Assembly: GCF_054482525.1 (NCBI RefSeq)
Contig: NZ_CM137006.1
Strand: one strand, 5' to 3'
Length of the DNA stretch: 64,000 bases
In this document: in pieces, positions 1 through 64,000 of the stretch
Position numbering within the stretch: position 1 is the stretch's first letter
How the letters are laid out: the number at the start of each line of letters is the position of its first letter
Position numbers and translations under genes: made by a program
Notes under the pieces: generated by a model
The model's input: only the letters and a program-made list of their open reading frames with translations
The model's database searches: none
Told to the model about the DNA's origin: nothing

Positions 1-134
1 CCAAAGTGCTGCGGCCAGAAGCTGATGCGCTGTTCATCAGGGACTATGGTGGCAACCAGCTGAGGCTGGTCATTCCCTGATGCAGCGGTTACGGAAACAG
101 AAGGAGTGGTGGAATTATGCAAGACGGTTGTCAT
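1..134 (-). CDS. antirestriction protein (ArdB/KlcA-like, YfjX/YafX family), 5' part only; gene runs off the window start
   Basis: Reverse-strand ATG at 134 with AGGA RBS upstream; in-frame translation MTTVLHNSTTPSVSVTAASGNDQPQLVATIVPDEQRISFWPQHFG ends in the EQRISFWPQHFG motif I associate with cryptic-prophage antirestriction proteins. Not in the ORF track because it is cut by the window edge. Confidence 0.5.
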   Translation of the reverse strand, partial: MTTVLHNSTTPSVSVTAASGNDQPQLVATIVPDEQRISFWPQHF

Positions 135-225
135 GAGATTATTCCTTATAAAAAGTAAATGAATGGAAGAAATCCCGGGGGAAGGGACAGACGTGAGTCA
201 GAACTGCGCTTTCAGGGAAACGGCA

Positions 226-1044
226 TCAGCGCATACTCTCCAGCAGCGTTTCAGCCATCACCCACAATGCGCGGTTGAGCTTAATGTCGGTGTCGATGCT
301 GTGAATGGCACGGGTATGGATACGTTTTCCTCTGGCACTGCGACCGGAAATCCCGCCTTTCAGCATATTCTCCTGAATGGTCTGATAAGCACTCCACAGG
401 TCCTTACCGTAATCCTCCCGGCGTCGTGGCGTCAGAATGTCGGCGGTGGTGACGGGCCGATGTTCGTCACCATAACGGTAAGTCAGTGCCGCCTGTGCCA
501 GCGCCTGGCGTGCCGGTGGCGGCAGAATCAGCGACTGCATGGCATCACGCTTTTCCTCAATCCGGTCAAAAACCCCCACCACCTCGTAAGCCCCTTCAAT
601 AACTTTCTCCACCACATTTCCCCGGTGCGGAACACGCACTTCCCCCAGAGACTGACCACAGACGCATCCGTTCTGACAGACGAACCTGAAGTAACCCGGC
701 AGCATCTGGTAGCTGGAGGTACCGTCATGGGAGTTGAGCAGAATGATTTCAGGGACATGTTCTCCGTTTATCTCTCCGGCCCGCCGCAGACGCAGCATAT
801 GTTTTGTGTATCCCCGGCGGCCCGGGTCGCGCACACGGGTCTGGCAGGCGAAGAATGGCTGAAAGCCTTCCCGCTGCAGGCTTTCCAGTACGGTGATGGT
901 GGGAATGTACGCATATCGTTTACTGCGGGAAGTATGCCGGTCTTCACCGAAAATACTGGGAACATAGTGCATCAGTTCTTCGTGTGTCAGCGGACGGTCA
1001 CGGCGTATCTGGTTCGTATAACCAAAACGACTGGCTAGTCGCAT
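226..1044 (-). CDS. DUF932-family protein (YfjQ-like, cryptic-prophage module)
   Basis: 272-aa ORF; length and sequence resemble YfjQ-type proteins of CP4-57-like elements; gene order matches that module. The 291-aa plus-strand ORF 163..1038 is its antisense shadow. Confidence 0.65.
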   Translation of the reverse strand: MRLASRFGYTNQIRRDRPLTHEELMHYVPSIFGEDRHTSRSKRYAYIPTITVLESLQREGFQPFFACQTRVRDPGRRGYTKHMLRLRRAGEINGEHVPEIILLNSHDGTSSYQMLPGYFRFVCQNGCVCGQSLGEVRVPHRGNVVEKVIEGAYEVVGVFDRIEEKRDAMQSLILPPPARQALAQAALTYRYGDEHRPVTTADILTPRRREDYGKDLWSAYQTIQENMLKGGISGRSARGKRIHTRAIHSIDTDIKLNRALWVMAETLLESMR

Positions 1045-1143
1045 AATTTGCTCCTTATCGGTGGTTAAGATTTACTGGTGTAATAAATGAAAAAGCCACG
1101 TCTCCCGGAGAAGACGCGGCCTGATGGGTGAAATGAATGACGT

Positions 1144-1377
1144 TTATTGTCTGAGAAGACCGTCACTGGCGAGCCGCGTATTAAGCACCTTTCCGGCATC
1201 GGGTTCAGAATTCCGGCAGCGCCAGCGTCGCTGACCTTCCGTGTTGCGGATAATCCGACGGAAATGCATTCCCGGGTCATCCTGGATAAACACATTGCGG
1301 TAAGCTGTTATGACAGCAACCGCCTGCCCGTATGAGAAAGATCCTTCAGCCAGGACATACTCTGTGTAACCCGGCAT
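1144..1377 (-). CDS. DUF905-family small protein (YeeT/YkfF-like)
   Basis: 77-aa ORF starting [30 protein letters not shown], matching recalled YkfF/YeeT-type proteins. Confidence 0.65.
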
Positions 1378-1455
1378 ATCTGTTTTCTCCTGATAAATAA
1401 AAAGCCTCTGCCACGCGTTGTGACAGAGGCTGAAGCATGAAACTGACTTCAGGGA

Positions 1456-1910
1456 TCAGTTAACGTTTTTTCCGGAAACGGTAATTAGCAGTGGATGGTA
1501 GTCCTGGGGATCGAAAACCGATAACGGCAGACTGACACGATGGCCGTTACTTTCTTCAGTTGCTTTAATGATTTCGGTTGTGGCGACATTTTCCACGCAC
1601 TCCGTTTCCAGAAATGCGTCTGTGGTTCGCGTGGCATTACTGTCACCAAAAGCTTCCGTTTCCATTTTTCTGGTCACCAGCGTCTGACCATATTTGTCTT
1701 TGAGTTGCAGAGTGATGGTGAGGGGCCAAATCCTTCACCGTTTCCGCCATTATCCAGCCGGAACTGGTAAGCACAAATATTTCCCGGGAGCCATATCGTA
1801 TCTGTATTGCGTATACCGATGTAACGTTGATCCTGTGCCCGGAGTGGGGCAGACCACGTTAACCCCAGAATAACGCCAGTAATAATGCAGGTTTTGAACA
1901 GGTGAATCAT
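1456..1910 (-). pseudogene. lipoprotein gene (YafY/YfjS-like) with a frameshift
   Basis: Two overlapping minus-strand ORFs (1674..1910 and 1456..1677) in different frames. The first begins with a signal peptide (MIHLFKTCIITGVILGLTWSAPLRA). The second frame stays open upstream and reads ...LTITLQLKDKYGQTLVTRKMETEAF..., so the two join into one protein if one base is restored in the G4 run at 1722..1725 (C-run on the coding strand). Confidence 0.5.
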
Positions 1911-62360: not shown

Positions 62361-62390
62361 AGGCACCTCCCCCAATTTTTATGCCTGCAT

Positions 62391-62711
62391 TCAGGCTTTT
62401 TCTAGCGTACACAGCAATGGATGCTCATTCTCCCTCGCGTACTTGTTCACCATCGCCACTTTGGTTTCTGCAACCTCGGCGGTAAAGACTCCGCAAATGG
62501 CCTTCCCCTGGTAGTGAACAGCGAGCATCAATTGCGTTGCACGTTCTACATCATAAGAAAAGAATTTTTGTAACACGTCAATAACAAACTCCATCGGAGT
62601 GTAATCATCATTGACTAATATCACTTTATACATAGATGGCGGTTTTAGCGCGTCGCGAACTTTTTCTTCCGCCAGTTGATCAAAGTCCAGCCAGTCGTTC
62701 GTTTTACCCAT
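62391..62711 (-). CDS. clpS: ClpS adaptor protein for ClpAP (N-end rule)
   Basis: 106-aa protein [51 protein letters not shown]..., immediately upstream of clpA. Confidence 0.95.
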
Positions 62712-63497
62712 TGTCAGTTATCATCTTCGGTTACGGTTATCGGCAGAACGCCCTGCCGCTGACAAGAGCTTATTTGCCTGACCAATCTACTCCACATGAT
62801 AGATAACTATCATTTATATCATTTAGTTAATTAGTCTTTATTTTTCATTATGTTGCAAATAACAAGCCCGTCAAAAACAGTGATATTAACTACACCATTA
62901 ACTACACCGCTTCACGAACAATATCGAACAACCGCGAACAAAGATCAACACGCTTTAATCATTATCATTTTCCGGCTATCCGTCATGAAGCTGGTGGATG
63001 ATCTGCGTGGTGATTTCCACCATTCAGAGCAGGGGCGGTCATCATGACCATGCCATAACAAAAACCCCATATTCGTGGTTTTTCTGTGTCGGGGCTATTC
63101 TGCTGTTGCCGTGCTGGTGGATATTCTCCGGTATGCGGCTCCCCATATCGGCATCAGGCCCACCAGCGTGAAGCGTTTTTCATTTTTCGCGGGTATAAAA
63201 AATCGATGGGGCTGGCAGTCCTGAAGACGTCAGGGTACGGAGATTTGACCCGCCCCTCCCTGTGCATGAGCACAATAAGTAACCGAAGGCGGAATTCCGC
63301 CCTCGGTACTTACATATGAGAAACGATATTTCTTCCACCGATACCCTTTATTTGGGTATTGCGAGTAAGCCCCAAAATCTGGGTGTTACTCTTACTACCC
63401 AAACTACGGGTAGTTTCCGTAGTTTCATGGTCGAGTTGCAAATCTGCAACTCACCCACCAGCCAACGCAATTTTGCGTTATCGGGAATATCAGCAAG

Positions 63498-63785
63498 TTA
63501 CCGCCGCAGTCGTTCCGGCTTCTTCCACTGGTAAGTATTTTTCGCGCTCTCCCTCCGTTGTTGAGAACGGCGACGGTATGCCAGCAACTCAAGGACTCTG
63601 GTTCGTATGTTGCGCATATCCACGCCGTTAAGCTCAATACCATCACGGCGCATCACCTCAGCAACAACACGCGCGTAATTTTCAGCGGTGACTGTATCCG
63701 GCTGCGCGGCCTGTTCGTCAGCCAACTGGCTGATTCCACCAGCACAGCGGATTAATCGCAGTATTTCAGATTCGGTCATTATCAT
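63498..63785 (-). CDS. hypothetical small protein (possibly phage-derived)
   Basis: 95-aa ORF with a basic C-terminus; start overlaps the stop of the next ORF (ATGA). Confidence 0.3.
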   Translation of the reverse strand: MIMTESEILRLIRCAGGISQLADEQAAQPDTVTAENYARVVAEVMRRDGIELNGVDMRNIRTRVLELLAYRRRSQQRRESAKNTYQWKKPERLRR

Positions 63786-63979
63786 GCCTGTTTTGCGACC
63801 TCATTCACTACGTCATTTTTTACCATCCGGCTGATAATCTGATTACACAAATCGTCAATAATTGACTGCACTCTGTTTACTGCCATCGGTTTAAGCCCGG
63901 CATCACGTGCCAGAATATTGGGGAGTTTTGCCAGTTCCTCGCTTACGATTTCCCCCCATATAGCCATCTCTTTTCGCAC
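63782..63979 (-). CDS. hypothetical small protein (possibly phage-derived)
   Basis: 65-aa ORF at the window edge; no family recognised. Confidence 0.3.
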   Translation of the reverse strand: MRKEMAIWGEIVSEELAKLPNILARDAGLKPMAVNRVQSIIDDLCNQIISRMVKNDVVNEVAKQA

Positions 63980-64000
63980 ATCATCGGCGGGTATGAGTTG

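Follow-up and report, generated by a model that had tools for sequence, protein, structure and literature searches.

Genomic islands that target the serine tRNA genes serW and serX form a well-described family in Escherichia coli and Shigella (PMC7545054, PMC3064760, PMC9144400). The direct repeat TGGCGGTGAGGGGG flanks the tellurite-resistance islands of E. coli O157:H7, OI-43 at serW and OI-48 at serX, and the same repeat belongs to the Shigella flexneri SRL pathogenicity island (SRL PAI) (PMC3064760). The published layout of OI-43 runs clpA, cryptic ser'W, int (PMC3064760), and integrase-dependent excision and integration have been demonstrated for the SRL PAI and for OI-43/48 (PMC7545054, PMC3064760). 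Here we analyze a 64,000-nucleotide stretch of contig NZ_CM137006.1 (assembly GCF_054482525.1), read on a single strand and called the window throughout. We are highly confident that positions 1 to ~59,560 of the window form a single mosaic tRNA-targeting genomic island at serW, beside the core genes clpA and clpS. The feature belongs to the described family and is already known in kind.

The window was surveyed by open reading frame (ORF) listing, composition, an ARAGORN tRNA search and megablast searches of a set of 5,426 complete E. coli genomes from RefSeq. From position 1 to ~59.6 kb it consists of accessory DNA, covered to at least 80% in only 156-268 of these genomes, the number varying with the third used as query. 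The interval 59.7-62.8 kb, holding clpA (60084-62360, minus strand) and clpS (62391-62711, minus strand), is universal among them; both genes are intact and this core segment is 97.7% identical to K-12. The best identity of the clpA region to any of the complete genomes is 99.3-99.4%. Five strains served for closer comparison: AH65 (chicken, China), E21 (human urine, China), 266917_2 (human feces, UK), the uropathogen NU14, and NCTC 86, the isolate recovered by Escherich in 1885 and called commensal by its sequencers (PMC5382810).

The island meets the core chromosome at a tRNA attachment (att) repeat and not at an insertion sequence (IS). A P4-family tyrosine integrase with the Pfam domains Arm-DNA-bind_3, Phage_int_M and Phage_integrase lies at 58184-59386 on the minus strand and is 100% identical in AH65, E21 and 266917_2. 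The exact 14-bp direct repeat CCCCCTCACCGCCA stands at 59547-59560, 160 bp beyond the integrase, and again at 59727-59740, where it ends a 16-nucleotide match to the 3' end of serW (59725-59740). The repeat equals the last 14 nucleotides of serW, each copy is followed by the serW terminator, and the sequence is the reverse complement of the published TGGCGGTGAGGGGG. Among empty-site genomes a tRNA-Ser gene is annotated exactly at the repeat position; K-12 and most other genomes have the tRNA-Ser directly at the junction, with no island in the interval between clpA and serW. Across the 5,426 genomes, 243 contain the int-att-clpA junction and 289 an equivalent int-att-dgcT junction at serX. A first-pass annotation made from the letters of the window had placed a tRNA-Ser gene next to clpA; neither ARAGORN nor Rfam detects one anywhere in the 64 kb, in which only 14-16-nucleotide 3' remnants of serW occur, twice. 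What had been called tRNA-Ser is therefore an att remnant, and the real serW is expected just left of the window.

The strain E21 allows the missing side to be estimated. Its island, 99.8% identical, sits at the paralogous serX and has an intact tRNA-Ser at its far end, 4.5 kb past the equivalent of position 1. Judging from E21, the island of the window would continue leftward for ~4.5 kb to a serW located off the left edge, so that the window would represent the integrase-proximal 59.5 kb of a ~64-kb mosaic integrative island. The island would have entered the 3' end of serW, between serW and clpA, by site-specific recombination, presumably through its own integrase. serX is also the island site in AH65, and serW is the site in 266917_2 and NCTC 86. 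In the model that we favor, family members share the P4-type integrase and the 14-bp serW/serX repeat, and cargo modules would be swapped at IS remnants. Such module exchange is illustrated by 266917_2, which has the right 36 kb in common with the window but differs left of the IS600 fragment described below, where it carries modules with fec, virK and capU.

Two side observations concern the att region. It is duplicated, with a ~180-nucleotide unit between the repeats composed of the 14-bp end of the tRNA together with the serW terminator and an RtT-like element (59604-59740; 41.3 bits, just below the Rfam cut-off of 45). This unit resembles tyrT-rtT repeats, is found neither in K-12 nor in NCTC 86, and is present in an additional copy in 266917_2. 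Secondly, the remnant of a type I-F CRISPR array, with two repeats and a single 32-nucleotide spacer (59783-59870, minus strand; Rfam CRISPR-DR4, 50.1 and 29.7 bits), sits in the intergenic region between the serW att site and clpA, with no cas genes in view.

Compared with the described islands, the window shares the integration machinery and differs in cargo. OI-43/48 use the same serW/serX sites, the identical 14-bp repeat and the clpA-ser'W-int layout that the window reproduces (PMC3064760). A 487-nucleotide segment covering the 5' end of the integrase and the junction is 99.4-99.6% identical between the O157:H7 islands and the window, and the integrase 5' part by itself is 99.4% identical over the part compared. 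The ter, ure and iha genes of OI-43/48 are not in the window, which instead carries type I restriction-modification-DarTG, Mokosh, aspR-dcuA, deoK-type and malX modules. The SRL PAI, at serX, shares its direct repeat and the family of its integrase with the window (PMC3064760; PMC7545054), and both islands contain an aspR-dcuA (orf8-orf9) module and a CP4-like distal end. Four specific SRL PAI primers (orf8 forward, orf9 forward and both region primers; sequences from PMC6980539) match the window exactly and at the expected positions. The resistance locus and fec genes of the SRL PAI are not found in the window; the likeness is judged from these primers and from published descriptions. Extraintestinal pathogenic E. 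coli (ExPEC) carry serX islands of the PAI-UTI89-serX and PAI-CFT073-serX type, of which that of NU14 was examined. Its integrase-proximal core and its module garD'-agaR-kbaZ'-kbaY'-malY-orf637-'rsmI are held in common with the window at 94-98% identity. The NU14 island differs in lying at serX rather than serW, in having sfa and, according to the literature, iro genes, in the loss of malX and in a frameshifted agaR.

The module shared with NU14 occupies 35.0-42.8 kb, where homologues of garD, agaR, kbaY and rsmI occur in the order and orientation of K-12; it was compared with K-12 by blastn and tblastn. The first-pass annotation had viewed these genes and clpS-clpA as chromosomal blocks, far apart in K-12, that had been brought together with only island DNA between them. 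The homologues do share the window with clpA and clpS, but they are not the native block of K-12: apart from agaR they are fragments only 77-90% identical to it, too divergent for native genes, and they are themselves part of the island cargo. As these fragments are paralogous cargo beside an att site, the juxtaposition reflects no rearrangement of the chromosome. A search of the 5,426 genomes finds the module in 310 of them, and island carriers consistently have two agaR places per genome.

Of garD (35035-36204, plus strand) only a pseudogene remains, which covers amino acids 73-215 and 282-522 and contains a frameshift as well as an internal stop. Its nucleotide identity to K-12 amounts to 80% in the 5' part and 90% in the 3' part, and AH65, E21 and GCA_958334565 carry it at 100% identity. 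The intact agaR (36267-37091) and the agaR-kbaZ regulatory region with its CTTTCGTTT-type operator repeats together span 36267-37339 on the minus strand, at 98.7% nucleotide identity to K-12. AgaR is full length (269/269 amino acids, 99.6% identical) and is the sole intact K-12 gene of the module. It is followed by an in-frame deletion fusion (37340-37678, plus strand) of kbaZ' (amino acids 1-33) to 'kbaY (amino acids 205-284), the kbaY part being 77% identical to K-12. Three intact genes come next on the plus strand: a malX-like phosphotransferase system (PTS) EIICB gene (37792-39363), a MalY/PatB-type aminotransferase gene (39375-40550) and orf637 (40564-42453). The last has been annotated as 'enterotoxin' or 'alpha-galactosidase' but matches nothing in Pfam, NCBIfam or PDB sequences, so these functions remain putative. 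The rsmI 3' fragment (amino acids 204-286 only; 85% identical to K-12) and an adjoining IS66-family scrap (42781-42867) span 42520-42867 on the minus strand and form the right edge of the captured garD-rsmI segment. At the position of malX-malY-orf637, K-12 has agaBCDI-yraHIJK.

A scan for orf637 in one genome per species, followed by local alignment, located related loci outside E. coli. Positions 37421-42781 run from the kbaY 3' end to the rsmI 3' end, with malX, malY and orf637 in between, and form one collinear block at ~86% identity in Enterobacter cloacae, E. hormaechei, E. quasihormaechei and E. soli. Where malX-malY is missing, in other Enterobacter and in related genomes, garD-agaR-kbaZ is located ~6 kb upstream of the kbaY end, a spacing that corresponds to an aga operon. 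This collinearity and the placement of garD-agaR-kbaZ point to a garD-to-rsmI locus taken from an enterobacterial chromosome unlike that of K-12, and on sequence comparison the module looks like a captured, decayed copy of it. We infer that the captured locus would have read garD-aga-malX-malY-orf637-rsmI, with both ends and the aga operon since lost. The right half of the module is Enterobacter-like and the agaR part E. coli-like; with agaR-kbaZ' of E. coli type, the module itself is chimeric.

Alternatively, an E. coli chromosome could have supplied the module, for instance through imprecise excision or when the island recombined with the resident aga locus; its low identity would then reflect decay after capture. 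The gene order and orientation of K-12, the 98.7% identity of agaR and the kbaZ 5' end, and the 90% identity of the garD 3' part all fit such an origin. Nevertheless, the native loci of K-12 and AH65 have agaBCDI-yraHIJK in place of malX-malY-orf637, the kbaY fragment is nearer to Enterobacter (~86%) than to K-12 (77%), and the segment from kbaY to rsmI is a single collinear block in Enterobacter. Moreover, the intact genes of this block are also only ~86% identical to Enterobacter at the nucleotide level, which indicates divergence between genera and not decay. We consider an E. coli source unlikely and prefer capture from another enterobacterium.

Several further observations were made on the module. 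Conversion of the island agaR by a native agaR of its host, which would explain 98.7% identity between flanks of 77-90%, was considered and finds no support in the data. The island agaR of 266917_2 (positions 6425-7249 of the stretch labeled L008) differs from the window copy at 16 of 825 positions, whereas the flanking pseudogenes differ at 0-3, and its identity to any other E. coli agaR does not exceed 98.4%. At the kbaZ'/'kbaY junction (~37366-37427) there is a near-perfect inverted duplication of kbaZ sequence (AAGCGGGCAAAACAAA ... TTTGTTTTGCCCGCTT) that looks like the scar of a fold-back or template-switch event. The orf637 protein is encoded, 100% identical and together with the malX-orf637 module, in contigs JAIJJM010000184.1 and SFGN01000089.1, which are labeled as metagenome-assembled genomes of Collinsella sp. 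and Lachnospiraceae. These are probably mis-binned E. coli contigs in species-representative genomes. The publication on strain BEN2908 was considered as a possible account of a malX/serX island and was set aside, as the malX-like genes of BEN2908 belong to a different locus.

The decay of the island is not specific to the lineage studied here. The first-pass annotation had listed five lesions, in an IrmA-family gene called a lipoprotein, the IS200 tnpA, garD, rsmI and an IS1-like element, and had preferred to see in them a pattern fitting an IS-driven, genome-reducing lineage of the Shigella or enteroinvasive E. coli (EIEC) type. All five lesions are real, and the window contains at least 12. 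All but one are common to island copies in other strains, the IS629-like insertion in mkoA (below) being the only lesion specific to the window. AH65 carries the garD, kbaZ/kbaY, rsmI, IS1-like, IS200, IS600, ACT-domain and TOTE-primase lesions at 100% identity, and the same eight regions are 97.6-100% identical in E21 and 98.8-100% in 266917_2. For the IrmA-family frameshift region the comparison covers E21 alone, at 100% identity. The serX island of NU14 has the garD, rsmI and IS1-like lesions at 95-97% identity. The gene decay was thus inherited with the island and was not produced in this lineage.

The carrier AH65 holds the module at 100% identity and, 2.5 Mb away, intact native garD, prlF, yhaV, agaR, kbaZ, agaS, kbaY, yraHIJK, rsmI and lpoA; the sole lesion there is an internal stop in agaC. 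In NCTC 86 the order is cspD-clpS-clpA-int-...-mkoA-mkoB-'rsmI-orf637-malY-malX-'kbaY-agaR-garD'-deoQKPX, so the arrangement beside clpS-clpA is conserved in a strain regarded as commensal, although the same pseudogenes recur there. Positions 29160-59609 are collinear with the serW island of NCTC 86 at 99.5-99.8% identity, but identity drops to 97.7% in the clpA flank next to it. An island better conserved than the backbone around it indicates horizontal spread. The NCTC 86 island differs from the window in its intact mkoA, in extra IS elements and in an iro remnant that replaces the restriction-modification/Ag43 part.

These data bear directly on an IS-driven rearrangement, in which the native garD-rsmI region of a Shigella/EIEC-like lineage would have been moved beside clpA through IS copies and would have decayed there. 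As in the reductive evolution of Shigella and EIEC, IS elements and pseudogenes do occur together, with several IS and at least 12 pseudogenes in 64 kb. The island family has a Shigella member in the SRL PAI, and the genome of the window is not among the complete RefSeq E. coli, which leaves room for a source labeled Shigella. However, fragments 77-90% identical to K-12 are too divergent for displaced native genes. Isolates from chicken and humans, as well as NCTC 86, have identical lesions, the carrier AH65 keeps an intact native locus, and it is the 14-bp att repeat, not an IS, that stands at the boundary with clpA. The IS elements named by the first-pass annotation are genuine (an IS629-like element, an IS600 fragment of the IS3 family, IS200 and an IS1-like element), and the IS66 scrap adds a fifth. 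Only one is intact, the other four being relics shared with other strains, and together they make up ~5% of this one window. The lesions fall in island paralogues carried by unrelated strains, and the core genes clpA and clpS are intact. Taken together, these observations make a rearrangement of the Shigella/EIEC type very unlikely. The annotation had offered a heavily rearranged island as its other option, which was essentially right: the window holds a mosaic integrative island at serW. An assembly chimera joining unrelated contigs at repeated IS or tRNA sequences could be imagined from the repeats near the junctions (IS629, tRNA 3' ends) but has next to no chance of being correct, given that many complete genomes assembled independently, among them NCTC 86 and 266917_2 with the island at serW, show the arrangement without a break.

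Four points weigh against the island and its captured cargo as described here. The left end of the island, with the intact serW and the distal repeat, lies beyond the window, so that integration is visible at one side only. The reading covers 64 kb, and the native garD-rsmI locus of the source genome and its IS load elsewhere are beyond view. The 98.7% identity of agaR to K-12 shows that the module is itself a chimera. Finally, no donor above ~86% identity to the captured segment was found among the genomes scanned, one per species.

The structure of the module suggests a tentative regulatory idea, which we regard as unlikely to hold. The deletion between kbaZ and kbaY may be more than decay and may have placed an AgaR-controlled promoter upstream of malX-malY-orf637, giving expression responsive to N-acetylgalactosamine and cross-talk with the native aga system. 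The kbaZ promoter/operator region is of E. coli type, conserved and directly upstream of these genes, and no terminator-like site was detected between it and malX-malY-orf637. Additionally, agaR and malX have been lost together in NU14.

Next to the rsmI fragment, the island encodes a Mokosh type I defense pair on the minus strand, mkoB (42933-44369) and mkoA (44366-47682 and 48993-50637), with mkoA split by an IS. PADLOC assigns 2206 bits to MkoA, using the intact 1,652-amino-acid copy of AH65, and 503 bits to the 478-amino-acid MkoB. The inserted element (47683-48992, plus strand) is an intact IS3-family member of 1310 bp with a 3-bp GAT target duplication and an ALIL frameshift pseudoknot. 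Its length and terminal repeats suggest that it is IS629-like. Its removal in silico restores a single mkoA ORF of ~1,660 codons, comparable to the 1,652 amino acids of AH65 MkoA. With mkoA interrupted, the Mokosh system is probably inactive here, as far as can be predicted from the sequence. In none of the 5,426 complete genomes does a single continuous alignment show the IS at this position of mkoA. The 1063-amino-acid MkoA fragment, searched as an exact protein, matched only IS-free contigs, and the IS-truncated N-terminal MkoA product is not on record. Five other genomes have an IS3-family element in or beside the same stretch of mkoA, differently arranged, and mkoA may be a recurrent IS target.

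The remaining cargo is described from left to right. A CP4-44-like distal module occupies 1-8713 on the minus strand, identified through the PGAP annotation of the 99.8%-identical E21 copy. It comprises DUF932 (226-1044) and DUF905 (1144-1377) genes, the IrmA-family gene (1456-1910), frameshifted in translation, a gene for a YeeR-like protein of 838 amino acids (1986-4502), an Ag43/Cah autotransporter gene (4623-7469) and a YeeP-like GTPase gene (7841-8713), all on the minus strand, and an IS102 RNA detected by Rfam (7488-7724). The YeeR-like protein has no Pfam or NCBIfam match and only a marginal PADLOC match (PDC-M09B, 23 bits). Between the Ag43 and restriction modules lies a low-GC (~41%) cluster of four uncharacterized genes without Pfam matches (9379-12814). 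They encode proteins of 227 amino acids (9379-10062, plus strand), 261 amino acids (10417-11202, plus strand), 250 amino acids (11364-12116, minus strand) and 84 amino acids (12560-12814, minus strand). The third has an endonuclease-like N-terminus and matches PADLOC PDC-M68A (83 bits) and endonuclease effectors, and the cluster could be another defense cassette.

A type I restriction-modification operon with an embedded DarTG system, recognized by annotation and Pfam domains, spans 13375-22710 on the plus strand. It consists of hsdM (13375-15813), hsdS (15813-17147), darT (17160-17816; PADLOC 248 bits), darG (17813-18880; PADLOC 424 bits), hsdR (18899-21994) and an M48/YgjP-like peptidase gene (21994-22710). 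The DarT ADP-ribosyltransferase and the DarG macrodomain antitoxin are encoded adjacent to each other between hsdS and hsdR. The exact HsdS protein was also observed in 4,009 blocks of a public collection, in several different island contexts. The IS600 fragment (IS3 family; 23066-23659, plus strand), which lacks its N-terminus and is 100% identical in AH65, marks a module boundary. Beyond it lies the aspR-dcuA D-aspartate module (23702-26130, minus strand), equal to SRL PAI orf8-orf9 and supported by NCBIfam matches, with a dcuA-like transporter gene (23902-25200) and an aspartate/cysteate racemase gene (25266-25985), both on the minus strand. A HypT-like LysR regulator gene (26336-27274, plus strand; NCBIfam) is intact here and is interrupted by an IS3-family element in E21.

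The IS200 element (27392-28205, minus strand) has a frameshifted tnpA (27392-27851) and the 5' RNA elements STnc490 and STnc100, and is 100% identical in AH65. A tRNA-Ile(CAU) pseudogene (28624-28691, minus strand) scores 30.7 bits with the Rfam tRNA model, has a 5-nucleotide deletion in the anticodon stem and is not detected by ARAGORN; we presume it to be ileX-like from its anticodon and the ileX sequence. It is probably a relic of an earlier tRNA-linked module and may be the relic att site of an older ileX-linked element absorbed into the mosaic. A deoxyribose-type sugar operon at 29463-33840 contains putative deoX (29463-30476), deoP (30488-31804) and deoK (31832-32752) genes on the minus strand and a deoQ regulator gene (33058-33840, plus strand), with NCBIfam ribokinase, FucP and DeoR matches. 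The deoK-type naming is presumptive and follows the literature (PMC5382810). Directly after deoQ there is an ACT-domain pseudogene (33842-34068).

To the right of mkoA lies the integrase-proximal conserved core (50822-57997), which the NU14 serX island shares at 94-98% identity. It holds a TOTE primase fragment (50822-51157), Gp2/YfjJ-like (51312-51875), YfjI/DUF3987 (52696-54129) and AlpA-type helix-turn-helix (54772-55068) genes and the degenerate IS1-like element with the insA lesion (55291-55983). An orphan gene of 605 amino acids and ~32% GC (56180-57997, plus strand) adjoins the integrase and has been kept in every island copy examined, including that of NU14; its product has no match in Pfam, NCBIfam or PADLOC. 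On the far side of the core genes, just upstream of clpS, a second and unrelated insertion begins between clpS and cspD (62818-64000) that is found neither in K-12 nor in NCTC 86. Its part within the window contains a small hypothetical gene and a DUF1441 gene, and positions 59800-64000, including its first 1.2 kb, are covered in 307 complete genomes. Its continuation in 266917_2 carries genes for a protease-capsid fusion, SSB and a primase, which suggests that the insertion is phage- or satellite-like.

The island is a common mobile package of phage defense, adhesin and sugar and amino acid utilization genes that moves between two identical serine tRNA sites. For the reading of single windows it offers a caution, as fragments of housekeeping genes within an island can mimic chromosome rearrangement or lineage-specific decay. 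If the deletion in the module did place malX-malY-orf637 under AgaR control, carriers could express an uncharacterized PTS/aminotransferase/hydrolase pathway in response to N-acetylgalactosamine, and the second AgaR copy could cross-talk with the native aga regulon. Two aspects are modestly new for this island family: the garD-rsmI cargo appears to have been captured from an Enterobacter-like chromosome, and the Mokosh defense system of the island has probably been knocked out here by an IS.

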